Below are positions 158 through 60,660 of a DNA stretch of 64,000 bases, piece after piece (within the stretch, counting starts at the first letter, position 1; every line of letters starts with the position of its first letter). This DNA is from Rhodospirillales bacterium. GTDB lineage: Bacteria; Pseudomonadota; Alphaproteobacteria; Rhodospirillales; UBA2165. The notes beneath the pieces were generated by a model. It saw only the letters and a list, made by a program, of their open reading frames with translations, did no database searches and was not told where the DNA came from. The stretch covers positions 2,626,971 through 2,690,970 of the forward strand of contig OZ243926.1 of NCBI GenBank assembly GCA_965213765.1, read 5' to 3'. Made by a program: the position numbers and the translations under genes.

Positions 158-527
158 GGGTCCGGACCCGATTGAGCCGCCATAGGGATGTTGCGGCGAT
201 GAGGCATAAAATGATTGCGTCATGGCCGGCCTACGCCGTCCGAAAGTCGGCTTCGGCCGACTGAAGGCCGGGCCCACCGGACCGGCTTCGCCGGCCGGAG
301 GACAAACCGCGACCCGGCCATCCACGTGTACCGTGCCGCGAGGCGTGGATCACCGGGTCAAGCCCGGTGATGACGACTTGCCGGTGAGTGAGGGAGAGGG
401 AGCTTGCCGTGCGTCCCCTCGCCCCCGTCAGGGGGAGAGGGATGCGAAGGGTTGGCGAGCGAAGCGAGCTATAGCCGGAGCCGGGTGAGGGGGCAAAAAC
501 GGGAATCCCCTAATCGAGTCCGGACCC
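158..527 (+). repeat. GTCCGGAC-TIR mosaic element, copy R1 (complete, long variant)
   Basis: Left end is gggtccggacccgattgagccgccat. Right end is cccctaatcgagtccggaccc followed by TA (528-529). The ends are inverted repeats of each other. The interior carries the ccctcgcccccgtcagggggagaggg hairpin and the long internal module shared with R4. Confidence 0.8.
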
Positions 528-5376: not shown

Positions 5377-5391
5377 ACCGGCGGGTACTTA

Positions 5392-5570
5392 GGTCCGGAC
5401 TCAATTGAGCCGCCATAGGAGTGTTGCGGCGCTGCGGACGGCGCGGCACAAGGTCCCTCGCCCCCGTCAGGGGGAGAGGGATGCGGAGGGTTGGCGAGGC
5501 GAACGCCAAGCCTACCCGGCGCCGGGTGAGGGGGAGTTTCGGTCGGTCCGCTCGTCCCCTCCCGGGGGAC
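5392..5570 (+). repeat. GTCCGGAC-TIR mosaic element, copy R2 (left TIR plus hairpin module; right end not recognisable)
   Basis: TA (5390-5391) is followed by ggtccggactcaattgagccgccataggagtgttgcggcg and the ccctcgcccccgtcagggggagagggatgcggagggttggcgaggcgaacgccaagcctacccgg module. The right boundary is approximate. Confidence 0.7.
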
Positions 5571-5663
5571 CGAGGAGCGCCATCGAAGGCCGGGTTCCTT
5601 CGCGTCGCGGCCGAATTCCCGTCTTCGCGCACGAACCGCCCCGCTCATTCATCTCAGGTCCCA

Positions 5664-14851: not shown

Positions 14852-15121
14852 GGGTCCGGACCCGATTGAGCCGCCATGGGAGCGTTGCGGCGACGGGGAC
14901 GGCGCGGCACGAGGTCCCTCGCCCCCGTCAGGGGGAGAGGGATGCGGAGGCTTGGCGAGCCTGCGAGCCATAGCCGGGTGAGGGGGAACTTCCATATCGC
15001 CCCCACCCTCACTCCTACCCCGGCCCTCTCCCGGAGGGAGAGGGAGTTTCGGTGGGTCCCCTCACCCCCTTCCCGGGGGGAGAGGACGAAAAAAGGAGAA
15101 TCCCCCAATCGAGTCCGGACC
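14852..15121 (+). repeat. GTCCGGAC-TIR mosaic element, copy R3 (complete, short variant)
   Basis: gggtccggacccgattgagccgccatggg at the left and cccccaatcgagtccggacc at the right. The interior holds hairpin modules HP1 and HP2. The right end abuts the TAA stop (15122-15124) of the histidine kinase. Confidence 0.8.
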
Positions 15122-16615
15122 TTAGGCGGGACTTTGCGGGATACGGCAGGTGACGGTGGTGCCCCGATTGAGGCGCGAGATCAGATTAACGGTGCCTCCG
15201 TGAAGCTCGATGAAGCTTTTGACCAGAGTCAGGCCGAGGCCGACGCCTTCATGGCCGGCATCCGCCCCCCGGGCGAAGCCCCTGAAAACAAGTTCGATTT
15301 CGGACAGCGGAATGCCGACCCCTGTGTCCTTGACGAATATCTCGATCTCATCCTGGCCGCGCGCCGCACCGAGCGTTACCGTCCCGCCGGGCTCGGTAAA
15401 TGCCAGCGCATTACTCAACAAATGGAGCAATGCCTGGCGCAATATGCGGTCGTCGGCGGTGATCCATCCGACCTCGGGCGAACAATCGAACGCCAGTCGA
15501 ATCTTGTCCGACCGGGCACGTTCCCGGACCAGGCTCAAAAGATCGGTCAACAGGACGTGGAGATCGAGACTTTCGAGATCAAGACCGAGCAGTCCCGCCT
15601 CGAGATTCGCAAGATCCATCACCTGTCCGATGGTCGACGCCATGGCCGCGGCCGTCGAGGCGATCCCCTCCGCATACTCCTGCTGGCGGCGGTTCAGCTC
15701 TCCGACGTAACCGCCGCCAAGAAGCTCGGCGAATCCCTTGACCGTGTTGAGGGGCGTCCTGAGCTCGAAAGACAGATTGGCGAGAAACTCGGTTTTAAGC
15801 CGATCGAGGGCCATCATCGAGTCGGCCTTGGTCCGGAGGGCCTCGCCTTCCCGGACGGTCCGGGTGACATCGGTATATCGAAACAGCATCGACCCGTCGG
15901 GGAGCGGGCGGCGGACGAATTCAAACACCCGCCCGTCTTCATGGCGAAGCTCAGATGTCTCCGAACTGCGCGCAAAGTAACGAGCCGCCAGCCGTGCGGC
16001 CTCGGCCTCCCAATCCTCGGATGACCCGTGCAGGCAGCGGGTCTGACGAACGAAGTCGCTCAAATGCAGCTTCGGGAGTTCGTCGGGAACCTCCCACATC
16101 CCGGCAAATGCCGGGTTGGCCAACCGAAGCCTTCCATCGCCGCCGAATACACCGATGGCCTCGGATAGATTGTCGAGCGTGGACTGCTGTACCGCCTGCG
16201 CCTCGCGCGCCTGCCGCTCGGCCGACATGCGCCTGCTGAGATCCTCGAAGGCCAGCATCACCGCTCCCTCTCCGAGAGGCGCTGCGATTCGCCGGAGCGT
16301 CGCGCCATCCGGCAGATGGAACACTTCTTCGTGGACATCCTGTAATCCGGCGAGGAGTCGTGATTGGGCCTCCCGATAGGCTTGGAAATCGACCTGTTCG
16401 GGTAGTTTGCGGCCCGCCCGCATTCGATCCAGTAAATCGCCGAATGTCGGCCGGCGCTCCAGCCACTCGGTGTCGAGATCAAACAGGGCGGCGAATACGG
16501 GATTGAAAGCCTCCACCCGGCCGTCGCGCGCGATCAGGCAAACGGCGAGCGGCAACGCCTCGAGGAGGGCGGTATCGATCCCAGGATGCTGGCCGGACGC
16601 GTGAAGTGTGGGCAC
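15122..16615 (-). CDS. PAS-domain sensor histidine kinase
   Basis: N-terminal PAS-like repeats, an H-box (..FLANLSFELRTPLN..), and a HATPase_c domain (..VKDTGVGIP..GVGLGLTLVKSFIELHGG..). Confidence 0.85.
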   Translation of the reverse strand: MPTLHASGQHPGIDTALLEALPLAVCLIARDGRVEAFNPVFAALFDLDTEWLERRPTFGDLLDRMRAGRKLPEQVDFQAYREAQSRLLAGLQDVHEEVFHLPDGATLRRIAAPLGEGAVMLAFEDLSRRMSAERQAREAQAVQQSTLDNLSEAIGVFGGDGRLRLANPAFAGMWEVPDELPKLHLSDFVRQTRCLHGSSEDWEAEAARLAARYFARSSETSELRHEDGRVFEFVRRPLPDGSMLFRYTDVTRTVREGEALRTKADSMMALDRLKTEFLANLSFELRTPLNTVKGFAELLGGGYVGELNRRQQEYAEGIASTAAAMASTIGQVMDLANLEAGLLGLDLESLDLHVLLTDLLSLVRERARSDKIRLAFDCSPEVGWITADDRILRQALLHLLSNALAFTEPGGTVTLGAARGQDEIEIFVKDTGVGIPLSEIELVFRGFARGADAGHEGVGLGLTLVKSFIELHGGTVNLISRLNRGTTVTCRIPQSPA

Positions 16616-16661: not shown

Positions 16662-16710
16662 CTGGAGCAGTTTCCGGTCAAATGGTTCAATTTGGCCGGA
16701 AACTGCCTAG
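16662..16710. repeat. approximately 50-bp palindromic element, copy P1
   Basis: ctggagcagtttccggtcaaat-ggttca-atttggccggaaactgcctag, with one arm mismatch in the 17-nt core (gcagtttccgg[t/c]caaat). Its terminal CTAG is shared with the left end of R4. It lies about 50 nt upstream of the kinase start. Confidence 0.8.
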
Positions 16711-17184
16711 GGTCCGGACACAATCGAGCCGCCATAGGAGTGTTGGGGCGATGAGGCATAAAATGATTGCGTCATGGCCGGGCCTACCGGACCGGCTTCG
16801 CCGGCCGGAGGACAAACCGCGACCCGGCCATCCACGTGCACCGCCGGCCGCGAGGCGTGGATCACCGGGTCAAATAAGGTCAATTCGGACGAATTGACCG
16901 ACCCGGTGATGACGACGTGCGGGTGAGCGGGGAGAGGAGGCTTGCCATGCGTTCCCTCGCCCCCGTCAGGGGGAGAGGGATGCGGAGGGTTGGCGAGGCG
17001 AACGCCAAGCCTACCCGGCGCTGGGTGAGGGGGAATTTCCATATCACCCTCACCCCGGCCCTCTCCCTCAGAGAGGGAGAGGGAGTAGTCGCGTTGCCGC
17101 ATCGGGTCCCCTCGTCCCCTTCCCGGAGGAGAGGGGAGGGTGAGAGGGCGCAAAAAGGAGACTCCCCTAATTGAGTACAGACCC
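16710..17184 (+). repeat. GTCCGGAC-TIR mosaic element, copy R4 (complete, long variant)
   Basis: TA(16708-9)-gggtccggacacaatcgagccgccatagg ... cccctaattgagtacagaccc-TA(17185-6). It contains the long internal module shared with R1, then HP1, HP2 and the aaaaaggaga right-end module. Confidence 0.85.
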
Positions 17185-17186
17185 TA

Positions 17187-18369
17187 GTCACCTGAATCTA
17201 AAGTTCGTGGCATAAATTTTGTTCGACCCGAAGGCAGAAGCGCTTGACGGCGGCGAGGATTTCATCGGCGGACTTGGTCCACTTGAAGGGTCGGGGGTTT
17301 TCGTTGTGGGTTTCGATGAAGGCGCGGATGTCGGCCTCGAGCTGGAGGGTAGAGCGGTGCACTCCGCGTTGCAGTTGCTTGCGCGTGAGCTCGGCGAACC
17401 AGCGCTCGACCTGATTAATCCACGACGCCGATGTCGGCGTGAAGTGGACGTGCCAGTGCGGCCGCCGCGCCAGCCAGGCCTTGACCCCCGCCGTCTTGTG
17501 GGTGGCGTAGTTGTCCATGACGATGTGGATGTCCAGCCCGTCCGGGACATTGCGGTCGATCACCTTCAGGAAGTCGAGGAACTCTCTGGCCCGGTGACGG
17601 CGATAGCACTTGCCGATGACCGAGCCGGTGGCAACGTCGAGGGCGGCGAAGAGCGAGGTGGTGCCGTTGCGCTTGTAGTCGTGGGTGCGCCGCTCAGGGA
17701 TGCCCGGCAGCATCGGCAGGACCGGCTGGGTGCGGTCGAGGGCCTGAATCTGGCTCTTTTCGTCGACACAGAGCACCAGCGCGCGATCCGGCGGCGACAT
17801 GTAGAGGCCGACAATGTCGCGGACCTTGTCGACGAAGTGCGGATCGCTGGAGAGTTTGAAGGTCTCGGCCCGGTGCGGCTGCAAGCCGAAGGCGCCCCAG
17901 ATGCGCCAGATCGACGTGTGCGACAGTCCCGCCTCCTTCGCCATCGAGCGCAGCGACCAGTGGGTGGCGTCCGCAGGCCGCGAGGTGAGTGTTCGCTCGA
18001 TCACTTGCGCCACCTTCTCGTCCTCAATGGTGCGTGGCCGTCCCTGCCGGGGTTCGTCCGACAGACCATCGATGCGGTCCTGGACGAAGCGCCTCCGCCA
18101 CTTGCCGACGGTGTGCTCGTGCACGCCGATCTCCGCGGCCACCGCCTTGTTGCCAAGCCCGTCCGCGCAACGCAGGATCATGCGGCAGCGATCCGACAGG
18201 GAGCGCGCCACACGGTGGCGGCGAACCTGCGCTTCCAGAAACGACCGTTCCTCATCGCTCAAGACCAGGGCCGCCAGCGGCCGTCCCGTACCGCGCGCCA
18301 TCGAGATGACCTCCTTTGTCCGACCAGGAGGGCCATCCTACAATGAACCTTACTTCAGTGCCAGATGAC
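17187..18369 (-). mobile_element. IS630-family insertion sequence (apparently intact)
   Basis: A single transposase ORF. The imperfect terminal inverted repeats are gtcacctgaatctaaagt.. and ..actgaagtaaggttcat read inward from each end. TA occurs on both flanks (17185-6 and 18370-1), which is the target duplication typical of IS630. Confidence 0.85.
17198..18301 (-). CDS. IS630-family transposase
   Basis: 367 aa with an N-terminal HTH (..[33 protein letters not shown]..) and a DDE region (..[12 protein letters not shown].. ..[10 protein letters not shown].. ..[10 protein letters not shown]..). Confidence 0.9.
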
Positions 18370-30302: not shown

Positions 30303-30489
30303 TTGCCGGTCTCCTGCTGGGCGGATGTCGATTACGCCCCATAAATAGTCTTCGGATTGAATTATTCCACGTCAAATCCGGCAATTCGATAAAATTTGCC
30401 GTGAGTTACGAAATTGTAATCTGCCGGAAAGGCCGCCTGTTCTTCCACCCTATCGCAACCGACCGGCATGAGGACGGCGGACTGAATGC

Positions 30490-30645
30490 CGTAGCCGGGT
30501 GAGGAGGAGTTTCCGTATCACCCTCACCCCGACCCTCTCCCTCAGAGAGGGAGAGGGAGTAGTCGCCGTTGCCGCATCGTGTCCCCTCGCCCCCGTCAGG
30601 GGGAGAGGGCGCAAAAAGGAGAATCCCCTAATCGGGTCCGGACCC
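30490..30645 (+). repeat. GTCCGGAC-TIR mosaic element, copy R5 (right half: HP2, hairpin, right TIR)
   Basis: Collinear with the right half of R4. It ends ..aaaaaggagaatcccctaatcgggtccggaccc, followed by TA that forms part of the polA stop codon. The left boundary is approximate. Confidence 0.75.
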
Positions 30646-33866: not shown

Positions 33867-34901
33867 ATGGGCGCGCGGCCGGCCGGATACGTCGTGGTTG
33901 CGGTTCTCCTGCTCGGCGCGTGCGCCCCCCGGTTCGTCCCGCCGGGTCCGCCGCGGGATGAACCGCGGCTGACGGAAAGCCATGCGGTCATGGCGGACGG
34001 CGCCCAACTGCCGCTCCGGTCCTGGCCGGTGAAAGGCGACGGGCGGGCGGTCCTGCTGGCGCTCCACGGGTTCAACGACCACGGCGAGTTCATCGACGCG
34101 GCCGCCGGGCATTTCGGCAAAGCGGGCATCAAGGTCTACGCCTACGACCAGCGCGGTTTCGGGAATGCGCCCGCGCGCGGCCGATGGGCGGGGATCGCGG
34201 CCCTGACCGACGACCTTCGGACGGTCGCCGGACTGCTGCGCCGGCGCCATGCCGACTTACCGCTATTCGTCCTCGGCCCGAGCATGGGGGGCGCCGTAAT
34301 CATGGCGGCGCAGGCCGAAAAACCGATCCCCGGGGTAAAGGGAGCCATTCTGGCCGGCCCCGCCGTTTGGGGGCGCGCCACGATGCCGTTTTACCAGCGC
34401 TGGGCCCTGTGGCTCAGCGCCCACACGGTCCCGTGGCTCACGCTCACCGGGCGCGGGATAAGCCGCAATCCGTCCGACAACAAGGAGATGCTTCGAGCCC
34501 TGGGGCGCGACCCGCTGGTCATAAAGGAAACCCGGATCGACGCCATTTACGGGTTGGCCGGCCTGATGGATCGCGCGTTCGCCTCGGCGCCCGGCTATCG
34601 GGCGCCGGCGCTGCTTCTCTACGGCGACAACGACGACATTATTCCGAACGAGGCGATGGAGCGCGTCTTCGAGCGGCTGCCGGAATCCGCCTCGGCGGTG
34701 CAGAGGATCGTACGCTACCCGGACGGCTATCATATGCTGCTGCGTGATCTGCAGGCGGAAACCGTGTGGAAGGATATCGTGGCCTGGATGGCCGATCCGG
34801 CCGCCGGCCTGCCCTCCGGTTTGGGCGCGCCGCCCCGGCGCTTTACGGCCCCAGGCGCTTCGGGTAATGTGCGCGCCCTCCACGACATTGGGCGCCCGTA
34901 G
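33867..34901 (+). CDS. alpha/beta hydrolase (lysophospholipase/monoglyceride-lipase-like), probable lipoprotein
   Basis: Lipobox-like LLLGAC, the patterns ..[10 protein letters not shown].. and ..GPSMGG.. (nucleophile elbow), and C-terminal ..GYHMLL... The last 10 nt, including the TAG, overlap the tRNA. Confidence 0.75.
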
Positions 34902-34968
34902 CTCAGCTGGATAGAGTGTCGGCCTCCGAAGCCGAAGGTCACAGGTTCGAATCCTGTCGGGCGCGCCA
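34892..34968 (+). tRNA. tRNA-Arg (anticodon CCG)
   Basis: Manual fold: acceptor GCGCCCG/CGGGCGC, D-arm GCTC..GAGT, anticodon stem TCGGC/GCCGA with loop CTCCGAA, T-arm ACAGG-TTCGAAT-CCTGT, discriminator G, and an encoded CCA. Confidence 0.9.
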
Positions 34969-35350
34969 TTCCTTTCAATGGGTTGGAGCTTACGTCCTAC
35001 GGCGCCATTTATCGCCTGCCGCACGCTGGCCGTTAGGGTTGGACAACGGCAATAAATGACGCCCAAGCATCGTTTTTATCCCCATTGACCTTTGAGCAAA
35101 ATGGTTCCCAATCGAGGCTAGTCTGTTCCTCAAATGCATCAGAGAGATTGTCCAAAGCTGTGCTTACTCTGTCACAGGCAAGGTACGGCGTAAACGCAGG
35201 CTAGAGAAAGAGCTGGTAGCTTAGATTCAATAATTGGGGACGGTCCCAAGTTCGAGATCGTATGATTGGATTATTGGGACGCCTCTTCGGTTTTTTCCGG
35301 CAGGTATCCCACTTCCTCCCAATCTTCGGAACTGGGCCCGACGTGCTGCA

Positions 35351-36304
35351 TTAGATAGCCTCGTTTGCAAATCCCCTTAGCGACCGCCATCTTGTGATTC
35401 CGAATTTGGAGAGCGTCCGAAGAATCTCTGTCCTAGTACCGATCGACACATTTCTGTTTTGTTTTCCGAGAATTTCGGAGACCCCCCAGCCGAACCTATT
35501 GCTTCGCTGGAGTTGGACTACGGCCTCTTCTCTCCCATGCCAGACGTAATAGTAGCTATTGCCCTCTAGCACCCATTTGATTTCAGAATTTAGGCAGTTT
35601 CGGAAGCGTCGGGAAGCGGCATCCATCTCTTGGCCAGATTCCAAGGGTACTAATTCTGACGTCCCTGCCCAAGGAGGTGGCGGAAACGACGCGCGGCTGA
35701 TCAGCCGATCTAACCAGTCGGCCAAGTCAAATCCGTCAGATTTAGAGGCTTTCTTTAATGAGGCCTCCAGCTCATCATCAGTCAACTCGGGCCGTAATTC
35801 TCTGATCGATTTGACTGCCAAATTAAAAGTTTCATTGAAAGCTTCGATGCTCCCAGGTTTTACAGAGCGAATCGTATCGTAAGGGAGTTGGATTTGTGTG
35901 TCGCTAGTTGCGAGCAGCTTAATTAGGTTAGGCGAAATTGACGCCGCGTGTCGCAGATATTTGGAAGTCTTGTGATCGTGCAGCAATGAGAGTAGCTCAA
36001 GATAGCGCGCCCCGGCGCAGGGTCTCCTTCCCATTTTTCCGAGCGCGGTGATTGTCCCCGAAGGACAACTTCCGCATATGAGTCGAATTACGGATTGGCG
36101 CTTACCCGAGCGAAGCAGTCGGCCAAGCTCGGCCCACTCTTCCATCCACTTCTCTTGTTGCTCGGCATGCGCCACAATCAGGCATACATAGTGAAGGCCT
36201 GGTCGGCCCAGCCCCACCAGGAAATCGGCAAATTGGGGATCGGCGTCACAAATTTTTTTCAGTGTGACGCTCAATCCACCAAATTGCGTTAGAACGGCGC
36301 TCAT
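35351..36304 (-). CDS. hypothetical protein (317 aa); the C-terminal ~90 aa resemble a PcfJ-like module
   Basis: The ATG overlaps the upstream stop (ATGA). No recognisable catalytic motif. The C-terminus ..LVPLESGQEMDAASRRFRNCLNSEIKWVLEGNSYYYVW..VVQLQ..WGVSEILGKQNRNVS.. matches the remembered PcfJ pattern (EG..M.HCV..G...T.E...Q.RG.N) only loosely. Confidence 0.6.
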   Translation of the reverse strand: MSAVLTQFGGLSVTLKKICDADPQFADFLVGLGRPGLHYVCLIVAHAEQQEKWMEEWAELGRLLRSGKRQSVIRLICGSCPSGTITALGKMGRRPCAGARYLELLSLLHDHKTSKYLRHAASISPNLIKLLATSDTQIQLPYDTIRSVKPGSIEAFNETFNLAVKSIRELRPELTDDELEASLKKASKSDGFDLADWLDRLISRASFPPPPWAGTSELVPLESGQEMDAASRRFRNCLNSEIKWVLEGNSYYYVWHGREEAVVQLQRSNRFGWGVSEILGKQNRNVSIGTRTEILRTLSKFGITRWRSLRGFANEAI

Positions 36305-36786
36305 TTCTTATCCAACACTGCGCGGAATGCATCCCGCGTCTCTTGAGTAAGTTCGACTTTCCAATCTTTCAGTGTTTCACCATCGTCGCCGTAAATGCCC
36401 TCTTCGTCCCAATCAATCAGATAGCTGTCAGGGTTTCCTGTGATTGTGCGAGTCCGCCGCGTTATTCCGGACCACAGGGTGTGATGGACTTTGTCCACAT
36501 CGACATTGAGTTCAGCAGCGACATCTTTCAGGCGGAAAAAACGATCCGGCCCTCTAGTGGCCGCGTTTAGCGCGGCACGTGTCTTCGGACTACACCCCTT
36601 CAGAAAGTCCCGGGCATTTGCCTCAGAAAACTTGACGAAATTTTCGTCTCCTTGAGGCTGCTTGCTGGGGTGTGACAATGTCTCTTCGTTGTTGGTTCCG
36701 ACCTCACTCAGCAAGTTGATCACCTTCATGCTCTGGTCCGCCGAAAGCCCCTCGATAAGCATGCTAAAGCGAATTTCTTCACTCAC
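36301..36786 (-). CDS. hypothetical acidic protein (161 aa), possible HTH-containing partner
   Basis: GTG start with AAGGAG 6 nt upstream. The central segment ..FFRLKDVAAELNVDVDKVHHTLWSGITRRTR.. looks like a helix-turn-helix or winged helix. I recognised no family. Confidence 0.55.
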   Translation of the reverse strand: MSEEIRFSMLIEGLSADQSMKVINLLSEVGTNNEETLSHPSKQPQGDENFVKFSEANARDFLKGCSPKTRAALNAATRGPDRFFRLKDVAAELNVDVDKVHHTLWSGITRRTRTITGNPDSYLIDWDEEGIYGDDGETLKDWKVELTQETRDAFRAVLDKK

Positions 36787-36821
36787 AATTCTCTCCTTGA
36801 TGCTGAAAGTTGATTCACCGC

Positions 36822-36851
36822 ATCATAGGCTAAATTCTGGAGAGAAGTCAA
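36822..36851 (-). promoter_or_regulatory. sigma70-like promoter candidate for the islet operon
   Basis: The minus strand reads TTGACT, an 18-nt spacer, then TATGAT. The -10 element lies about 35 nt upstream of the GTG at 36786. Confidence 0.45.
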
Positions 36852-36926
36852 TTATAAACACAGTGAAATATGATGAAATATTGTTATTCACCATTCTTTC
36901 ATCCATAGCGAACGGCGGAACCAGGC

Positions 36927-38444: not shown

Positions 38445-38502
38445 GCTGCCGCCTCCCTTGCGTCACGGCATGTTACACGCCGGTGCGGGAAAACCTCAAT
38501 AA

Positions 38503-38583
38503 CCGGGCCCACCGGACCGGCTTCGCCGGCCGGAGGACGAACCGCGTCCCGGTCATTATCACCCTCACCCCGGCCCTCTCCCT
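38503..38583 (+). repeat. mosaic element fragment R6 (left part of an element split by IS5)
   Basis: ccaccggaccggcttcgccggccggaggac.. is shared with R1 and R4, followed by ..caccctcaccccggccctctccc (left arm of HP2). It is interrupted at about 38583. Confidence 0.7.
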
Positions 38584-39757
38584 GAGGATTCTTCTGCGAA
38601 AGTCGCAAGGAGGGGTTTGTGTCGGGGGTTGGGGCTGTTTTGGTACCGGGCGGCGGGTTTGCCGCGGCGTTTGCGGGCCGGATTGCGGTGCGTTTTGCGG
38701 TTTCCGGGCGCGTCGCGCCCTCACGGCCCGGCGAGCAGGCAGGCCCGGCGCATGTTGTAGACGGCGGCGGCGGCGAAGAGGCGGGCCGTGTTCCTGTCCC
38801 GGGACCGGCTCTTGGCGCGGCGCAGCCCGTAGAAGCGCTTGAGGGCGGAGAACACGGCCTCGACCGGGGCGCGCCGTCGCGCGATCAGAGCGTTGCGGCG
38901 CTGTTGCCAATGGGGCAGCGCGGCTATGTGCTTGTGCCGCCGGTGCATGATCCGGTCCTTGATCCCCGCCGCCTTGAGCCGCGCCCGTCTCGCCGCCTGC
39001 TCGTAGGCCTTGTCGCCATAGACCGCGGCCTCGTCGCCGCAGATCAGCCGGTCGGCGACCTCGCTCTCGGAGGTCTTGGCCGAGGTCAGCACCACCCGCC
39101 GGATCAGCCCCGACCCCTGGTCGACGCCGAGATGCGCCTTGTAGCCGAAGAAGGCGCGCCCCTTCTTGCGGGTCCAGTCGGCGCCGGGCTCGCCCGCGTG
39201 CCCGGCACCCGCGCCGGCCTTGTAGGGCGGCGGGCGCGAGGCCGCGGCCACCAGCGTGGCGTCCATCAGCGTGCCCTTGCGCACGATCAGACCGGTGGCC
39301 TCCAACTGGCGGTTGATCTCCTCGAAGGCCGCCTCCAGAACCCCGCCCGCATCCCCGCGAAAGCGGCAGATCGTGGTCTCGTCCGGCGTGCCCCCGTCAA
39401 GCGCAAAGCCGCAAAAACGCCGGAACGACAGACGGTCCAGCAGCGCCTCCTCCAGACCGGGGTCCGACAGATCGTAAAGCACCTGAAGATAAAGCGCCTT
39501 CAACATCGACAGCGGCGCATAGGGCGGACGGCCCCGGCGCCCCGGGCGGACCGCCGACGCCAGGCGCTCCAGCGGAGACCAGTCGATCAACGCATCCAGA
39601 CGATCAAGCTTCCGGTTCGACCCAAGACCCGGAGAAACAAACGCTTCCGCAAACCCCAGCTGACCCTTGCCGCTCATCGACGCCTCCAACAGTTGATAAC
39701 CACACTGAATCACATCACAAACCCATTGAGAATCCCCTTTTCGCAGAAGAATCCTCA
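38584..39757 (-). mobile_element. IS5-family insertion sequence
   Basis: The terminal inverted repeats are ..gaggattcttctgcgaaa (38584-38601) and tttcgcagaagaatcctc.. (39739-39756). There is one transposase ORF. The exact ends and target duplication are ambiguous because the host hairpin arms extend the inverted symmetry. Confidence 0.8.
38721..39677 (-). CDS. IS5-family (DDE) transposase
   Basis: MSGKGQLGFAEAFV..NRKLDRLDALIDW..PPYAPLSMLKALYLQVLYDLSDPGLEEALLDRLSFRRFCGF.. is a typical IS5-group N-terminus, with ..VYGDKAY.. in the DDE region. The start is at the internal ATG. Confidence 0.9.
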   Translation of the reverse strand: MSGKGQLGFAEAFVSPGLGSNRKLDRLDALIDWSPLERLASAVRPGRRGRPPYAPLSMLKALYLQVLYDLSDPGLEEALLDRLSFRRFCGFALDGGTPDETTICRFRGDAGGVLEAAFEEINRQLEATGLIVRKGTLMDATLVAAASRPPPYKAGAGAGHAGEPGADWTRKKGRAFFGYKAHLGVDQGSGLIRRVVLTSAKTSESEVADRLICGDEAAVYGDKAYEQAARRARLKAAGIKDRIMHRRHKHIAALPHWQQRRNALIARRRAPVEAVFSALKRFYGLRRAKSRSRDRNTARLFAAAAVYNMRRACLLAGP

Positions 39758-40003
39758 GGGAGGGAGAGGGAGTCGAACGGAATTCCCTCGCCCCTTCGGG
39801 GGGAGAGGGATCGGTCTTTCTTTTTGCACCCTCGCCCCCTTCGGGGGAGAGGGATGCGGAGGCTTGGCGAGCCTGCGAGCCATAGCCGTAGCTGGGTGAG
39901 GGGGAATTTCCATATCACCCTCACCCTCATTCCCGCCCTCACCCCGGCCCTCTCCCGGAGGGAGAGGGAGTCGAGCGGAAATCCCCTAATCGGGTCCGTT
40001 CCC
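39758..40003 (+). repeat. mosaic element R7 (right part of the IS5-split element, with right TIR)
   Basis: It resumes with the gggagggagaggg right arm of HP2 and contains hairpin modules. It ends cccctaatcgggtccgttccc, followed by TA that forms part of the acyl-CoA dehydrogenase stop codon. Confidence 0.75.
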
Positions 40004-41154: not shown

Positions 41155-41309
41155 TTCGCAGCCTCCCGCGCCCCAGGGATCAGCTTGGGGGATCAGCTTA
41201 ATGCACCCGGTTCGCGTAGGCCATTTTCTTCGCCCTGATGACGCCGTGTCCTCGGATGGGCCGGCGGGCGGGCGCATACGGGCGGCTACCGGGCCGGCCG
41301 GCTGTAGCC

Positions 41310-41630
41310 GCGGCGTACGGCGCGGCACAAGGTCCCTCGCCCCCTTCCGGGGGGAGAGGGACCGGTCTTTCTTTTTGCACCCTCGCCCCCTTTCAGGGGG
41401 AGAGGGATGCGGAGGGTTGGCGAGGCGAACGCCGAGCCTACCCGGCGCTGGGTGAGGGGGCGAGCCTGCGAGCCATAGCCGTAGCTGGGTGAGGGGGAAT
41501 TCCGTATCGCCCTCACCCTCACTCCCACCCTCACCCCGGCCCTCTCCCGGAGGGAGAGGGAGTTTCGGTGGGTCCCCTCGCCCCTTCCCGGGGGAGAGGG
41601 GCAGGGTGAGAGGGCGCAGCGTACGGCGCA
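41310..41630 (+). repeat. mosaic element array R8 (internal hairpin modules, no TIR)
   Basis: ggcacaaggtccctcgcccc..ggggagaggg, gatcggtctttctttttgcaccctcgccccc.., HP1, a duplicated gtgaggggg module, and HP2. Boundaries are approximate. Confidence 0.7.
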
Positions 41631-46336: not shown

Positions 46337-46796
46337 CCTCGTTGGGCCATTCCACTACATGATCCTCCAAATCGCCGGCATCCCGCTCGGCAACGCAGCG
46401 GCCCCGCACCGACACCCCGGCCCGATGCACGCTTTCGGGATCGCCGGAAACCAGAGGGTGCCAATCGAAAAGATCTTTTCCCTCCGATATCAACCGGTAG
46501 GCGCACGTCGGCGGCAGCCATTCGATGGCCGTCAGCGTCCCCGGGGTCAACTCGACGCAATCGGGCACCCGAACGGTTCTGTGCGTGTAATCCGTACAAC
46601 GGCAGGCGCCGATGTCGAGGAGACCGCACGCAACTTCGGTGTATTCCACTTCCCGGGTATCTTCATACTCGATTTTGTGAAGGCAGCACTTGCCGCACCC
46701 GTCGCAGAGCGACTCCCACTCTTCGAGGCTCATCTGCTCAAGTGACTTGGCCTTCCAGAAAGGTTCGTCCTTTCGGTCCTGCCGGGCAGTCGCCAC
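46317..46796 (-). CDS. ycgN: YcgN-family cysteine-cluster protein (UPF0260)
   Basis: ..[29 protein letters not shown].. ..[15 protein letters not shown].. Confidence 0.8.
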
Positions 46797-47112: not shown

Positions 47113-47349
47113 ATGACGGATGATCCGGGCCGTGTTCAAAAAAGGTCTATCCGGATCGCCGGCCACGCGACGAGCGTATCCGTGGAGCAGGCATTCTGGG
47201 ATCGGCTGCGGCTCATATCCGCGGCGCGCGGCGTTTCAATCAATGGCTTGATTGCCGAGATCGACCGGCACCGAACCGGCAATCTCTCGAGTGCTATCCG
47301 GCTGTTCGTCCTCGAAGAATTGGACCGTCCCAACGCCGACGGCGACTAG
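47113..47349 (+). CDS. ribbon-helix-helix domain protein (RHH_4-like)
   Basis: ..RSIRIAGHATSVSVEQAFWDRLRLISAARGVSINGLIAEIDRHRTGNLSSAIRLFVL.. The start is uncertain (ATG 47113 preferred, track start 47053). The TAG stop lies inside palindrome P2. Confidence 0.65.
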   Translation: MTDDPGRVQKRSIRIAGHATSVSVEQAFWDRLRLISAARGVSINGLIAEIDRHRTGNLSSAIRLFVLEELDRPNADGD

Positions 47350-47395
47350 AGCAATTTCCGGCCAAATGGTTCAATTTGGCCGGAAATTGCTCTAG
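47346..47395. repeat. approximately 50-bp palindromic element, copy P2 (perfect)
   Basis: ctagagcaatttccggccaaat-ggttca-atttggccggaaattgctctag, with perfect 22-nt arms. The two terminal CTAGs contain the stop codons of the convergent RHH gene and asmA, so it could act as a bidirectional terminator hairpin. Confidence 0.85.
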
Positions 47396-50300
47396 CGGCC
47401 CAGCCCGCGCAGGATACCCTTTAGGACATCGTCGACCCGCGGCTGCCGGTTCTGCTGCTGTCGGGTTGGCTGTTCGGGGCTCGGCTCCCGGGGGGTTGGT
47501 TCAGTTGACGGCTGTGGCTCCCGGGTCTGCTGTGTGCCGCCCAATATGCCGGGAAGCAGCTGATCGACCACGGCACCAACGCCCGGGTTCTTCTTTCTCA
47601 GTTTGTCGAGGCCGGGAATGGCAATCCCGCCGGTACCCGTCCCACCGGTTTCCAGCTTCACATTCGGGGAATCGAGCCGGCCGGTGATCTCGAACGGCAC
47701 AACCGGCGGCAGCCGGGTTTGCTGGGCAAGCAGGGCGACAAGCAGGTTCCGGTCCAGCCGCACCTCACCGGTCGTCCGTACCTGCCAGTTGGGCAGATCG
47801 ATGCTGCCCCGGGCGCTGCCTGAACCGACCCCCGACGACAGTTTCAGATCATTGAAGGAAGCAACCCCGCGGCCGACTTGAAACGTCGAAGTGACATCGG
47901 CCAGGCCACCGCCCCGGCGCCCGCCGAGCGCATAAAGGGGCTGCAGGATGCCGATGACCGGTGCAAGCATACTCCCTTGGCCTGCCCCCCCCGGATCGAT
48001 CCCCTTGAGTTCGAAGCGGCCCTGTCCGGCCAATCCGGCAACGATGTCCGCGACCGATCCGCCGGCGGAGGTCAGATCCGCTGCGAAGGTCAACCGCCCG
48101 GCTTTGAGCGCTGACGAATCAAGGGCGCGCATGGCCGCGGGAAGTCCGAGATTCCGCAGATTGAGCTGTGCGGCGTACCGGCCGCTTCGCCCGGCACCGG
48201 CAATCCGTCCACCCGCGGTCAGGGCGCCCCCGAAAATGCGGCCCGTCAGACGGTCTGCGTTCAACACGCCGTTCTTGAGGGACGCCGCAAGATCAACGCC
48301 GCTCAGCGTATATTTGCCGAACGTCAACGATTCCGATTTGAGGGTGATGTCGGCATCGGCAAGCCCAAGCGCGGAAAGATCGATGGCATCGGTGGAAAAC
48401 CGTCCGCCGCCCGTGGCGATCCGGACCAGCAGCTGCCGGGGGTCGAAGTTCTCGGGGACCCGGAACGCCGCAGGCCGGATCGGCCGCACGTCTGTTGGAG
48501 ATAGGGATGTCCGGCGTGGCGCCGGCAGGAACCGGTCGATGATTATGGCCCCGGTCCGCAAATTCATAGCGACTGCCGGCCTCAGCCCGCTCAGCTTTAC
48601 GCTCACGACGCCCGATACGGGAATATCCGCCGCCACCCCTTTCAAGCCGCTGACCGAAATGTCCGTCGGGTTGCCCGCCACCTCGGCCGAGAGTTCAATT
48701 TTTCCGAGCCGGCCCGACGGCGCGTACGAAAGCCCTGCGAGGCGCAAAAACCGCCGAAGATCGGAATGGACGATCCTGACCGCGGCGTCGACAGCGGGAA
48801 CATCGCCGAGCGCCGCGACGCGCCCGGAAAGTTTGGCTGCCCCCCGTGCCGCTTTGACGGTCATATCGACATCGAGGTCGGCCGGCGCGCCATTGAGCGT
48901 CCCGGACAGGGATACCGGCCCCAACCGGGACGGCGGTATCGGCAACCGTGTTCCGGTCAGCTTCAATATTCTGGACAAATTCCTCGATCGCACATCGAGC
49001 GTCAGGTCCTGAAGCTTCGGATTCGGGTTGGACTGACCGGCCTCCAGGCCGGTGACGGCGCCCTTGGCATTTGCCGTAACGCCTGCGGCGTCGGCAATTC
49101 GAAAGTCGCGTACCGTCAGTACCCCATCGAAAATCGTCGCATCGAGACGGAGATCGCGAATGGGAACCCGTTGAACCGTGAGCGCGCCGATCCGTGCCTT
49201 GATATTGGCGTCAATGCTGCTGAGGGCCGCTAGCGGCGCCAGGGGATTCGCGGGCGGCGAGGCCGCCGGCCGGGCCGCCGACTGGGCCTCCGCCGCGCCG
49301 GCCGCCGCGTTGCCTGCACCCGCTTTCGGCGGCTTGGCGGCGGACCCGGGGCTGCCGAGATAGGGATCGACATTTATCTTGTCGACCACAAGGTTTGCGC
49401 CTACGGCGAGTTTTTGCCGCAGCGCCAAGGTCGCCGCACCCGTTACGCGGGTATTGTCGACCTGCAGATCAATTTCGCGAAGCCGGATTTCCTTGGGCGT
49501 GGCGCCGACCTTGCCGGCAAAAGCGAGCTTGCGAAGGCGATCCGCGGCCGCCGCCGGGGGCGCAACGCCAAGCCAGGTCAGTACGGTGCGGAGGTCATTG
49601 GTGGACATGTCGACGTTTCCGTCGAACGCCGGTACGCCGTCCTCAATCGCGGCAAATCCAAACATGGCGAAATCGGAACCGCCGGGCAGCTGCGCGGACA
49701 CCTGATTGACGGTGATCTCACCCGCCGAGAGCGCGGCGTCGAATTTCGCCTCCCGTACCACGCCGCCGCGATAAACGATTGTTCCCACGGTGAGATTGAC
49801 GGACGCATTGATGTTTTCGGGAATCGCACGGGGCGCACCGGCATCCGTGCCGGGCGCCGGCGTTCTCGGCGGCGCAATTTCCCGTGAGGCCTTCGCCGCG
49901 CCCTGTGCCTGGGCTGCGGAATTCCCTTCGGCTGCGGCGGGGGTTGCCGGCTTGAGAAGCGAGTCAACATCCAACCGGTTCACCGTCAGCTTGGCGTCCG
50001 CATCGATCGATTCACCAAGTGTGATATCGATCCCGCCGCTGCCTCGTATCCGGTCGAGACTTAGATCAAGTTCGGAGACCGACACGGCGTCGGCGGCCGC
50101 CGCGACGTCCGCCTTAAGCGCAAACCGGCGGGACAGAATTTCCGGCAGGCGCGCGCGCCCACCCAGCGCGGCCAAAAACCCGGTGAGGTTTGCCCCGTCG
50201 ACGGTGATTCTGCCTTTGAACCGGGGCTCGGTCGGGAGGCCGGCAAGGGTGCCGCTCATTCGGGTCCTCACGTCTCCCGGCAAAATTCGGACGTCGGCCG

Positions 50301-51009
50301 AAAACGGCACCGTCCGGCCCTGGATGATCGCCCCCAACGAGATCTTGTAGCTCAATGGAATGCCGTGCGCGATCAAACTGCCGGTGGTTTCCAGGGGACC
50401 GGTCAGCGAAGCGGCGTTCAAGCGCCCATTGATGTTCCGGATACGCTCGGTTCGGCCGGAGCCTTCATCCCGGAAGATGACAGTGCCCTTTTCAATGACG
50501 AAGTCATCGACCACCACGGAAGGGGGCGCAGCCGGTCCCGGAGGCGGGCTGGCGGGCCGGCTGCCGGTATTTCCCGGCGCCGGTGCCGCAGCCTCGGGCG
50601 GTGAAAACACCAAATTGGTGCGGCCATCGGCAAAGACCTGTATGTCGAGGACGGGCTCCTCGAGACGAACCGATTCGACCCGGATGTTGCCGCCAAGCAG
50701 CGGCAACAGCGCCACCCGAACATCCAGAGATTTAAGGGCAACCATGTCGGCGGACGCGGCCCCCTCGACATTGGCAATCCGGATATCGTCGACCCGGAGC
50801 GTCGGCATGGGCAGCACCGACACGCTGATGTCGCCGCGGAGCTCCAGATGCCGGCCCGTGTTGTCTTTGACCAGCTTGACGATTTTGTCTTTGACCAGCT
50901 TGACGATTTCGGGCGTGCGTTCGTTCCAATCGACAATGCCCGGCACAATGAGAACGGCGGCGATTACGGCCAAAACCAAACCGGCAAGGACGGCGGCGGC
51001 AATCTTCAT
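47392..51009 (-). CDS. AsmA-family outer-membrane biogenesis protein
   Basis: 1205 aa with an N-terminal anchor (MKIAAAVLAGLVLAVIAAVLIV), a long repetitive beta-rich body, and a Pro/Gln-rich tail. Confidence 0.75.
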   Translation of the reverse strand: MKIAAAVLAGLVLAVIAAVLIVPGIVDWNERTPEIVKLVKDKIVKLVKDNTGRHLELRGDISVSVLPMPTLRVDDIRIANVEGAASADMVALKSLDVRVALLPLLGGNIRVESVRLEEPVLDIQVFADGRTNLVFSPPEAAAPAPGNTGSRPASPPPGPAAPPSVVVDDFVIEKGTVIFRDEGSGRTERIRNINGRLNAASLTGPLETTGSLIAHGIPLSYKISLGAIIQGRTVPFSADVRILPGDVRTRMSGTLAGLPTEPRFKGRITVDGANLTGFLAALGGRARLPEILSRRFALKADVAAAADAVSVSELDLSLDRIRGSGGIDITLGESIDADAKLTVNRLDVDSLLKPATPAAAEGNSAAQAQGAAKASREIAPPRTPAPGTDAGAPRAIPENINASVNLTVGTIVYRGGVVREAKFDAALSAGEITVNQVSAQLPGGSDFAMFGFAAIEDGVPAFDGNVDMSTNDLRTVLTWLGVAPPAAAADRLRKLAFAGKVGATPKEIRLREIDLQVDNTRVTGAATLALRQKLAVGANLVVDKINVDPYLGSPGSAAKPPKAGAGNAAAGAAEAQSAARPAASPPANPLAPLAALSSIDANIKARIGALTVQRVPIRDLRLDATIFDGVLTVRDFRIADAAGVTANAKGAVTGLEAGQSNPNPKLQDLTLDVRSRNLSRILKLTGTRLPIPPSRLGPVSLSGTLNGAPADLDVDMTVKAARGAAKLSGRVAALGDVPAVDAAVRIVHSDLRRFLRLAGLSYAPSGRLGKIELSAEVAGNPTDISVSGLKGVAADIPVSGVVSVKLSGLRPAVAMNLRTGAIIIDRFLPAPRRTSLSPTDVRPIRPAAFRVPENFDPRQLLVRIATGGGRFSTDAIDLSALGLADADITLKSESLTFGKYTLSGVDLAASLKNGVLNADRLTGRIFGGALTAGGRIAGAGRSGRYAAQLNLRNLGLPAAMRALDSSALKAGRLTFAADLTSAGGSVADIVAGLAGQGRFELKGIDPGGAGQGSMLAPVIGILQPLYALGGRRGGGLADVTSTFQVGRGVASFNDLKLSSGVGSGSARGSIDLPNWQVRTTGEVRLDRNLLVALLAQQTRLPPVVPFEITGRLDSPNVKLETGGTGTGGIAIPGLDKLRKKNPGVGAVVDQLLPGILGGTQQTREPQPSTEPTPREPSPEQPTRQQQNRQPRVDDVLKGILRGLGR

Positions 51010-52483: not shown

Positions 52484-52584
52484 TTCGCGTCGTGGCCAGG
52501 CGCGCCGCGAACGGCGATGCCGGCCCGTCGGCGGAGTAGCGCAACGCCGCCACGACGCGAAGGAACCCGGCCTTCGGTGGCGCT

Positions 52585-52888
52585 CCCCGGTCCTCCGGAA
52601 AGGGGGTGAAGGAACCCGATGCGGCAACGCGACTACTCCCTCTCCCTCTGGGAGAGGGCCGGGGTGAGGGTGGGAGTGAGGGTGAGAGTGATATGGAAAT
52701 TCCCCCTCACCCAGCTACGGCTATGGCTCTCAGGCTTGCCAAGCCTCCGCATCCCTCTCCCCCTGAAAGGGGGCGAGGGTGCAAAAAGAAAGACTGGTCC
52801 CTCTCCCCCTGACGGGGGCGAGGGACCTTGCGCCGCGCCGTCCTCGTCGCCGCAACACTCCCATGGCGGCTCAATCGGGTCCGGACCC
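52585..52888 (-). repeat. GTCCGGAC-TIR mosaic element, copy R11 (inverted; TIR only at the right-hand end)
   Basis: Reverse-complement order of HP2, HP1 and hairpin modules, ending ..cgccgcaacactcccatggcggctcaatcgggtccggaccc. The following TA is part of the 5-oxoprolinase stop. The left boundary is approximate. Confidence 0.75.
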
Positions 52889-56616: not shown

Positions 56617-56666
56617 CTGGAGCAGTTTTCGGTCAAATGGTTCAAATTGGCCGGAAACTGCTCTAG
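56617..56666. repeat. approximately 50-bp palindromic element, copy P3 (imperfect)
   Basis: ctggagcagttttcggtcaaat-ggttca-aattggccggaaactgctctag, with three arm mismatches in the 19-nt arms starting at gagcag. It ends 10 nt before the ATG of the DUF3750 gene. Confidence 0.8.
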
Positions 56667-58104: not shown

Positions 58105-58165
58105 TCACCCTGCCCCTCTCCCCCTGACGGGGCGAGGGATCTTGTGCCGCGCCGTCCCGCGGCGG
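58105..58165 (-). repeat. mosaic element fragment R12 (single hairpin module, inverted)
   Basis: cccctctccccctgacggggcgagggatcttgtgccgcgccg is the reverse complement of the cggcgcggcacaaggtccctcgcccccgtcagggggagaggg module. Confidence 0.65.
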
Positions 58166-59171: not shown

Positions 59172-59864
59172 GTGATCAGCTTTCGCGATCGGCCTTCGCC
59201 CAATTTCGACGGTCGCCCGGACGGCGCCCCCATCGATATGCTGGTCCTCCACTATACCGGCATGAGAACGGCAACGGAGGCGCTCGACCGGCTTACCGAC
59301 CCCGAGGCAAGGGTAAGCGCCCACTATGTCGTCGAGGAAGACGGTACGGTCTGGCGGTTGGTGGATGAAAAAGCGCGTGCCTGGCATGCCGGGATTTCCG
59401 CCTGGCGCGGCGAGACCGACATTAACGGCCGCTCCGTGGGGATCGAATTGGTCAATCCCGGTCATGAGTTCGGCTACCGCCCGTTTCCCGGCGCACAGAT
59501 TGAAGCATTGATCGAGTTGACGAAAAGCATATTGGAGCGCCACCCCATCCCGCCCCGCAATGTCGTGGGACACGCGGATGTCGCCCCGGCCCGCAAGATG
59601 GATCCGGGTGAGTTGTTCGACTGGCCACGGCTCGCCGCGGCCGGCATCGGCCTCTGGCCGGCGGACGGCCAAAAAGCGGGCGCCGGGGGCCATGCCGCGG
59701 AACTCGGCGGCATCGGTTATGACACCACCGAACTACCCGCCGCGGTGACGGCATTTCAGCGCCACTTCAGGCCGTCATCGATTGACGGCGAAATTGACGC
59801 CGAGACCGGCCGGCTGATCGGCGCGGTTTACCGCCTGGCGACAGGCACCCGGCAGCCGGATTAG
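59172..59864 (+). CDS. N-acetylmuramoyl-L-alanine amidase (AmpD/amidase_2 family) with C-terminal peptidoglycan-binding-like domain
   Basis: ..IDMLVLHYTGM.. ..SAHYVV..DG.. ..AWHAG.S.W.. ..IGIELVN.G.. ..VVGHADVAP.RK.DPG.. The TAG stop (59862-59864) overlaps the TA flank and first base of R13. Confidence 0.85.
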   Translation: MISFRDRPSPNFDGRPDGAPIDMLVLHYTGMRTATEALDRLTDPEARVSAHYVVEEDGTVWRLVDEKARAWHAGISAWRGETDINGRSVGIELVNPGHEFGYRPFPGAQIEALIELTKSILERHPIPPRNVVGHADVAPARKMDPGELFDWPRLAAAGIGLWPADGQKAGAGGHAAELGGIGYDTTELPAAVTAFQRHFRPSSIDGEIDAETGRLIGAVYRLATGTRQPD

Positions 59865-60148
59865 GGTCTGTACTCAATTAGGAGATTCTCCTTTTTGCGC
59901 TTTCTCCCTCTGCCCCCCTCCCCCGGGAAGGGGGCGAGGGAACGCACCGAAACTCCCTCTCCCTCTCTGAGGGAGAGGGTCGGGGTGAGGGTGATATGGA
60001 ATTTCCCCCTCACCCGGCGCCGGGTAGGCTCGGCATTCGCCTCGCCAACCGTCCGCATCCCTCTCCCCCTGACGGGGGCGAGGGACCTTGTGCCGCGCCG
60101 TCTTCATCGCCGCAACACTCCTATGGTGGCTCAATCGGGTCCGGACCC
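59864..60148 (-). repeat. GTCCGGAC-TIR mosaic element, copy R13 (complete, inverted orientation)
   Basis: TA(59862-3)-gggtctgtactcaattaggagattctccttttt.. through ..cctatggtggctcaatcgggtccggaccc-TA(60149-50). Same module order as R3/R4 in reverse complement. Confidence 0.85.
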
Positions 60149-60242: not shown

Positions 60243-60634
<392 letters not shown>

Positions 60635-60660
60635 TTTTCGCCAATCCCAACGGACGCAGC

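Follow-up and report, generated by a model that had tools for sequence, protein, structure and literature searches.

Bacterial MITEs are mostly described as A+T-rich (PMC2229807). RUP of pneumococcus, for which IS630-Spn1 is the proposed mover, resembles the R4 family of elements reported here in being small and non-coding, with terminal inverted repeats (TIRs) and a TA target (PMC2229807), and in being found beside or within IS elements (PMC2229807; PMC3049150). RUP, however, is an A+T-rich unit with a uniform length of 107 bp, and its TIRs correspond to a resident IS630 element; R4-family copies are modular, 126-579 bp long and 65% G+C, and the DNA searched contained no IS to match them. BOX of Streptococcus (boxA-boxB(n)-boxC) has, like the R4 family, conserved terminal modules with a variable internal number, and its length at one locus varies between strains (PMC3049150). 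The R4 family shows no sequence relationship to BOX, belongs to another host phylum, and differs from it by many kinds of internal module, by TA duplication and by its stop-codon sites.

The Correia/NEMIS elements of Neisseria are likewise TIR-bounded MITEs with TA ends that are abundant in intergenic DNA (PMC2229807), and they too share mosaic repeat regions with CGTC-type REPs (dRS3) (PMC3733652). In contrast to the R4 family, Correia elements are A+T-rich, come in fixed sizes of ~105-155 bp and contain an IHF site; neither family has a known cognate transposase. CGTC-tagged REPs are defined by a CGTC tag, an 8-9-bp stem starting with AT, a 4-5-nt loop and a CCA tail (PMC3733652). The M2a module of the copies R1 and R4 fits this alphaproteobacterial definition (Di Nocera et al. 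2013; PMC3733652), with a 9-bp stem starting with AT and a 5-nt loop, but here such REPs are only one cargo module and form tail-to-tail dimers, which Di Nocera et al. call rare (PMC3733652).

The R4 family consists of small non-coding mobile DNA elements, a bacterial MITE, of an uncultured Rhodospirillales bacterium. The window, i.e., the whole stretch of 64,000 nucleotides that was analysed, holds 4 complete and 9 partial copies (13 loci in 64 kb):

158..527, + strand: R1, complete copy, 370 bp; REP dimer with nested mC and mB
5391..5611, + strand: E2, left TIR, modules and an alternative right-hand module common to E10
14852..15122, + strand: R3, complete copy, overlapping at its right end with the stop codon of a histidine-kinase gene (15122-16615)
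16710..17184, + strand: R4, complete copy from left end to right end, 475 bp, 65% G+C, non-coding
30487..30645, + strand: E5, right-TIR half-element; the polA stop codon is TA plus the first G of E5
38501..38585, + strand: E6a, left portion of an element split by an IS5-family insertion (38586-39754)
39755..40003, + strand: E6b, right portion, its right TIR degenerate; TA plus first G makes up the stop of an acyl-CoA dehydrogenase gene
41309..41618, + strand: E7, TIR-less module array with an 11-bp direct repeat, GCGTACGGCGC, at both sides; missing in L015 and L016
42911..43182, + strand: E8, TIR-less module array; module number unlike that in L033 and L015
46887..46985, - strand: E9, short TIR-less array
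52553..52888, - strand: E10, left TIR, modules and alternative end; TA plus first G is the stop of an oxoprolinase gene
58105..58165, - strand: E11, minimal TIR-less fragment
59864..60148, - strand: R13, complete canonical copy, 285 bp; TA plus first G is the stop of an amidase gene (59172-59864)

The original prediction had placed the complete copies at 158-527, 14852-15121, 16710-17184 and 59864-60148, and these coordinates were confirmed (15121/2 for the right end of R3). It had also described the nine partial loci as built from common internal modules, which were indeed found at all nine, and repeat finding assigned all 13 loci to shared families. The layout needs correction at two points: R13 has the opposite orientation, and the array that had been given as 52585-52888 (E10) keeps an intact left TIR at 52863-52888. 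The copies take up 3,197 bp, or 5% of the window, close to the ~3 kb estimated before. All of them sit in intergenic gaps on a crude GC3-based gene map of the window, and their G+C content is 65-66%, so that the A+T-richness usual for MITEs is not seen. Many spurious open reading frames come from the family, and masking is needed in MAGs of this lineage.

Inverted repeats had been expected over the outer ~20 nt of the elements. TIRs are real and present at both ends, but they measure 16-19 nt (GGGTCCGGACyCGATTrrG), and their outer 12 nt are themselves a perfect palindrome, GGGTCCGGACCC. The left-end motif GGGTCCGGACNCGATTGAGCCGCCAT has six matches in the window at ≤3 mismatches, against none in 100 shuffles, and a frequent right-end variant, GGGTCTGTAC, is carried by the right end of R4 and by one end of R13. 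In all, 28 complete copies were collected; they span 126-579 bp and lack coding capacity, in line with the non-autonomy that had been proposed. The shortest, of 126 bp (L085), is made of a left end, a short linker, one hairpin and a right end. Copies of ~285 bp, including R13, share 82-92% identity between non-orthologous loci and are an amplified subfamily.

Across the related contigs, TA lies directly outside 70 of 102 distinct element ends (69%), against a background of 1.9%, and the ends without TA have mostly CA or TG flanks. The base before the TA is C in 54 of the 70 TA-flanked ends, which gives a CTAG-like target. Fifteen of the 28 complete copies have TA at both sides and 12 at one side. 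As predicted, R4 and R13 are flanked by TA at both sides and R1 has CA at its left; the right flank of R3, for which TA had not been recognized, is TA if AGGTCC is taken as the end, its first G having mutated. At the left, R1 (CA) and R3 (CG) have flanks that arose from TA by one step of decay. The alternative of a 4-bp CTAG duplication, in which the element would begin at GGTCC, was rejected, because R13 is flanked by CTAG at one side and CTAA at the other, and because the base before the TA varies. The target of the R4 family is nearly always C-TA-G, or CTAA/TTAG, and TA is duplicated on insertion.

Duplication is seen directly at the R4 site, where three elements stand in a row. The original prediction had mentioned neither D12 nor the IS630-family element beside R4, nor the CGTC-REP dimer of R1 and R4, nor the association with stop codons. 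The features of this site and of R4 itself are:

16665..16706, no strand: D12, near-perfect palindrome, 44-nt (GAGCAGTTTCCGG...CCGGAAACTGC), a TA-flanked mini-element adjoining R4
16708..16709, no strand: left TA flank of R4, the left copy of the duplicated target; the empty site has one TA
16710..16728, + strand: left TIR of R4, GGGTCCGGACACAATCGAG, with 2 mismatches to the family consensus
16770..16834, + strand: CGTC-tagged REP 1 (CGTC-ATGGCCGGG ... CCCGGCCAT-CCA), whose loop holds mB (16786-16821)
16858..16914, - strand: CGTC-tagged REP 2 (CGTC-ATCACCGGG ... CCCGGTGAT-CCA), whose loop holds mA (16876-16899)
16954..17148, + strand: G-rich hairpin array
16954-16979: module H1
16980-17021: module M4a
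17022-17058: module M5
17059-17083: module H4
17084-17105: linker M7a
17106-17148: module M8
17167..17184, - strand: right TIR of R4, variant GGGTCTGTACTCAATTAG, read from outside
17185..17186, no strand: TA common to the right end of R4 and the IS630-family element
17187..18369, - strand: IS630-family insertion sequence, 1,183 bp, TA-flanked, with ends GTCAyCTG...; missing in L080 and L012
17198-18301: IS630-family transposase with DDE_3 and HTH domains

Related loci were used for comparison: L080 is 97-98% identical to the window, L012 (reached via the flanking histidine kinase) has 92-94% nucleotide identity, and L015 and L016 (reached via the PPK2 gene) are syntenic at ~90% identity. Another locus, L031, was left out as an ortholog for E9, since its synteny with the window breaks at window position 46679. 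R4 is absent from the 98%-identical strain L080 and from the about 94%-identical relative L012, and D12 is absent from both empty sites. L080 reads ...GGCTGGAGGC-TA-GTAGCGG... and L012 reads ...GGACGC-TA-ATAGCGG..., each with a single TA, whereas the window reads ...GGACGC-TG-[D12]-c-TA-[R4]-TA-[1,183-bp IS]-TA-GTAGCGG..., with TA at both sides of R4. The empty-site comparison that had been proposed thus came out positive at R4: one TA became four (one of them since changed to TG) through three serial insertions. The TA of the empty site belongs to the stop codon of the adenosylhomocysteinase gene. R3 and E2 are missing from L012 too, which is free of copies over its 21 kb. Compared with L012, the flanks of R3 fit a TA duplication in the TAG stop of the kinase gene, the distal copy of which later decayed; no TA is present at the empty site of E2. 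The two empty sites at R4, together with the TA at 70 of 102 ends, bear out TA targeting with duplication. The family has the properties of a MITE: it is small, non-coding and multi-copy, with TIRs and a target-site duplication seen by comparing filled with empty sites.

The same flank pattern is found in other elements. IS630-family elements on two other metagenomic contigs (L093 and L094) have C-TA...TA-G flanks and begin with G and end with C, and D12 likewise begins with G and ends with C, with CTAG/TA-type flanks. Ten of the 33 CTAG sites of the window are junctions of such G...C elements. Because the element starts with G and ends with C, insertion into C-TA-G restores CTAG at both junctions; each insertion makes fresh targets, which explains the serial row D12-R4-IS630 in the adenosylhomocysteinase stop codon.

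Gene ends are frequent neighbours of the elements. At 43 of 68 TA-flanked ends, the TA plus the first G of the element is the exact stop codon of an open frame of at least 100 codons, against 5 and 15 for the same test in two control frames; this count includes a few orthologous pairs twice, and the safe figure is ~60% of TA-flanked ends. The GC3 of these frames is coding-like, 0.72-0.92 in all but one. The genes of the window that end at an R4-family element code for the histidine kinase, PolA, the acyl-CoA dehydrogenase, the oxoprolinase and the amidase. D12 is found at the stop of an AsmA-family gene (47392-51009), and the IS630-family element at that of the adenosylhomocysteinase gene. TAG is the stop of 18 of 43 window genes. 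A TAG or TAA stop struck by an insertion would come back as TAG, so that gene ends would be harmless landing sites. CTAG is probably rare in this 63% G+C genome and many CTAGs are likely to be stop codons, where the regenerated stop would make an insertion harmless; of the two TA copies, selection may then keep the one in the stop codon and let the distal one decay. The family illustrates how an element that targets TA/CTAG can become dense in a genome of 63% G+C, where TA-containing stop codons are among the few targets available and insertions into them are tolerated. It may also shift stop-codon usage towards TAG.

Between their ends the elements vary: what lies there is cargo, not one fixed sequence. 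Eight exact copies of the hairpin CCCTCGCCCCCGTCAGGGGGAGAGGG occur in the window, with 0 expected, and the G-rich hairpin modules are built on CCCTCNCCC/GGGNGAGGG. Beyond what the 126-bp form contains, larger copies gain such G-rich hairpins, the dimer of CGTC-tagged REPs and mini-hairpins nested within the REP loops. Among 8 canonical copies scored for M4a/b, M7a/b and the two right-end variants, 6 of the 8 three-way combinations occur, and all four gametes are present both for M4a/b with M7a/b and for M7a/b with the right-end variant. In the 97-98% identical strain, the orthologs of E3, E5 and E6 have identical flanks and ends but different interiors. At E3, L080 has a REP dimer in place of the G-rich array of the window; at E6, it is L033 that has a REP dimer, in place of the G-rich array plus IS5-family insertion of the window; and the polA stop (E5) is followed by a right TIR in the window and by a left TIR in L040, then by identical distal modules. 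The module combinations and the swapped interiors at orthologous sites agree with the modular recombination that had been proposed. Modules are probably swapped by ectopic recombination or gene conversion, aided by the near-palindromic hairpins, with slippage or deletion in addition.

Some arrays lack TIRs. Module number varies between strains at E7 and E8, and E7 is a TIR-less insertion relative to L015 and L016. The 11-bp direct repeat of E7 is similar to the linker of the element itself, and this similarity suggests copying through microhomology instead of transposition. E8 is bounded by ~7-bp direct repeats. Since E7 and E8 are without TIRs and flanked by direct repeats, some of the spread was not mediated by a transposase, and the TIR-less arrays are best explained by recombination, deletion and template switching that acted on MITE-derived sequence. 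Elements are present or absent between close relatives, yet between the 98% identical strains occupancy differs at only 1 of ~10 orthologous sites, so that activity at present is low or episodic. As substrates of recombination, the copies change even between strains that differ by 2%, and their turnover bears on MAG assembly breaks, strain typing and 3'-UTR evolution.

Taken together, R4 is very probably a copy of a non-autonomous MITE family with IS630/Tc1-type TA targeting and a recombining modular cargo. Its elements would be cut and pasted by a DDE transposase of the IS630/Tc1-mariner type supplied in trans. Among bacterial IS families, IS630 is the best known for a TA duplication within CTAG, and the target signature, read with this established knowledge, points to an IS630-type mechanism. 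The assignment to IS630/Tc1 made earlier holds as far as the CTAG/TA flanks, which match those of the IS630-family elements in the window and in L093 and L094. The expected IS630-family transposase with matching IS ends (GGGTCCGGAC at the MITE) did not turn up in the window, in 92 loci retrieved by way of the TIR or of flanking genes, or among plasmids and viral contigs. Relatives of the window IS630 transposase at 83% identity are named IS630 family by NCBI. Local alignment of the ends of its element (GTCAyCTGGCACTGAAG) with the MITE and D12 ends was no better than with shuffles. By tblastn, the window IS630 and IS5 transposases had no homologue in the 92 loci, a set that leaves out L093 and L094, which were fetched via the transposase itself; two 21-kb loci with close IS630 relatives (93-96%) contained no MITE modules.

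The absence of a cognate IS630 element from this material would be expected if the mover were a non-IS630 transposase, e.g., an IS5-family enzyme of the IS427 type that cuts CTAG-like sites, or an enzyme since lost. Some IS5-family subgroups make 2-4-bp duplications at YTAR, and an IS5-family element sits within E6. The ends of this resident element (GGATTCTTCTGCG) are nevertheless unrelated to those of the MITE and its flanks are TGA/TCA, not TA, whereas the sampled IS630-family elements show exactly the 2-bp TA duplication inside CTAG that is seen at the MITE; we consider a mover of another type unlikely. Palindromic modules make up the interior, R1 and R4 contain true CGTC-tagged REPs, and there are TIR-less arrays (E7-E9, E11) and a strain-variable module number. 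All this would suit REP/BIME-like palindrome arrays spread by a RAYT tyrosine transposase or by recombination alone, the TIRs and TA being incidental. To our knowledge, REP and REPIN insertion has not been described as making a TA duplication, which is what the empty sites show and what the 69% of TA-flanked ends indicate. Moreover, the TIRs and G-rich hairpins are without a GTAG/CGTC tag and an AT-start stem, only M2a fitting the pattern, and the minimal 126-bp copy has TIRs and no REP. An origin as REP/BIME arrays is therefore very improbable. No tyrosine-transposase (Y1) match was obtained among the Pfam-scanned window ORFs or the genes called in syntenic loci.

We rate just as low the probability that these are host-selected 3'-end RNA structures, terminators or mRNA stabilisers beside stop codons, copied mainly by gene conversion. 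About 60% of ends do adjoin stop codons, and folding of the modules, which had been proposed as a check, gave very stable predicted structures (z-scores -3 to -7.7), in which the TIR stem closes a multi-branch of hairpins. Stop codons adjoin 29 of 44 left ends and 14 of 24 right ends, with no orientation bias relative to the upstream gene, and the about equal use of the two ends argues against a directional RNA function. Covariation gave no support for a selected RNA structure (covariation term +2.1, 1 compensatory pair only), no terminator-like T-tracts were found in the arrays, and Rfam returned no match at gathering thresholds and only chance-level ones (E ~0.9). Finally, close relatives without copies have nothing in their place, and some copies, such as E7, lie between divergent genes.

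An exact scan for the left end in one genome per species found it in only four Rhodospirillales MAGs. A metagenome scan gave 76 stretches with the left end, about two thirds of them from project LXNI01; several LXNI01 contigs are 97-98% identical to the window over blocks of 2-9 kb and tile ~2/3 of it. Matches outside the lineage were chance matches to the short core, with the rest of the element missing. The TIR was absent from PLSDB plasmids, where a Sphingomonas plasmid gave one weak 85-bp match, and had zero matches in IMG/VR viral contigs. Within the databases searched, the family is confined to one lineage of uncultured Rhodospirillales. In full texts the TIR string matched only unrelated primers, and no description of the family was found in the literature on Rhodospirillales MITEs, RIME and stop-codon MITEs. 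Judged by Rfam, the plasmids, the viral contigs and the literature searched, the family has not been described before. Its most unusual features are the regeneration of stop codons and the nesting of REPs and mini-hairpins in a TIR-bounded carrier.

This nesting was analysed across the loci. We know of no transposase for CGTC REPs. At window position 375 (- strand), CGTC-ATCACCGGG-CTTGA-CCCGGTGAT-CCA shows every element of the CGTC-REP definition, and the loci together hold 73 CGTC-tagged hairpins, 61 of them with a CCA tail. REP 1 and REP 2 of R4 are arranged tail-to-tail, as are the dimers in R1 and in many LXNI copies. In the window, CGTC REPs always lie inside a TIR-bounded element, which suggests how orphan REPs could spread. 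Smaller hairpins in turn occupy the REP loops: mA (27 nt), seen in two contexts, and mB (37 nt), seen in several contexts and in both orientations. It is possible, and we propose it only tentatively, that the R4 family is a three-tier nest of non-autonomous DNA, a safe-site MITE that is both landing pad and carrier for smaller mobile hairpins (CGTC REPs and mini-hairpins of 27-38 nt). If the mini-hairpins truly move alone, Alphaproteobacteria would have in them a new class of ultra-small mobile DNA, and the MITE would be a route for the spread of REPs without RAYT. Elhai et al. (2008; cited in PMC3116915) reportedly described cyanobacterial SDR as very small hairpin units nested inside other repeats; the nesting is alike, with no sequence relation between SDR and the R4 family. 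The third mini-hairpin, mC (38 nt), was found in four contexts and in both orientations, and had CCGG at both sides every time.

A second type of small element adjoins the complete MITE copy R4. This palindrome, D12, has the sequence GAGCAGTTTCCGGyCAAATGGTTCAATTTGGCCGGAAACTGCTC, and on its flanks TA lies within CTAG.

16665-16706, 47349-47392 and 56620-56663: D12, a 44-nt near-perfect palindrome, three copies
52435-52484: degenerate copy of D12
L076 12535, L053 127 and L004 3359: D12 in related contigs

We conclude that D12 is a second mini-MITE, consisting of the TIR only. An AsmA-family gene (47392-51009) has a TAG stop codon whose G comes from the copy at 47349-47392. Among the 43 genes of the whole window, the stop codons are TAG in 18, TGA in 19 and TAA in 6, a high share of TAG for a GC-rich bacterium, and in 6 of the 18 TAG stops the G is a mobile element's first G.

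Two insertion sequences were also found, one with its target in a stop codon and the other within E6, an incomplete MITE copy.

17187-18369: IS630-family insertion sequence; transposase 17198-18301, minus strand
38586-39754: IS5-family insertion sequence; transposase 38721-39713, minus strand, with DDE_Tnp_1 and DUF772

The target of the IS630-family element was the TA in the adenosylhomocysteinase stop codon, and the 98%-identical strain lacks the element. Relatives of 93-96% identity on other metagenomic contigs match its ends and its CTAG/TA flanks. The IS5-family element, with the TIR GGATTCTTCTGCGAAA and flanks TGA and TCA, was inserted into the loop of a G-rich hairpin in E6; the LXNI strain (97-98% identity) lacks this insertion sequence.

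Nesting was also observed at a smaller scale, since mini-hairpins of 27-38 nt (mA, mB and mC) occur in both orientations inside the loops of the CGTC-tagged REP or inside other modules.

234-271: mC
275-311 and 16786-16821: mB
16876-16899: mA
L007 3682, L009 5153 and L015 1513: nested mini-hairpins outside the window

In four different contexts mC has CCGG at each side, and these brackets look as if they were a 4-bp target duplication.

The window has further features.

5570-5655 and 52553-52600: alternative right-hand module common to the incomplete copies E2 and E10
60246-60635: RNase P RNA gene (Rfam RF00010, 327 bits)
35000-36900: low-GC stretch (58%), adjoining a tRNA gene (34892-34965)

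The alternative module, GGAGCGCCAyCGAAGGCCGGGTTCCTTCGCGTCGyGGC, replaces the right TIR in E2 and E10. The left end of R13, a complete copy, lies 98 bp from the start of the RNase P RNA gene. The low-GC stretch carries 6 CTAG sites in 1.5 kb, and its ORFs gave no matches to Pfam. At the matching position the related contig L016 has another inserted block, with ABC_tran, DUF87, AAA_22 and PLDc_2, and the stretch is probably a variable island.
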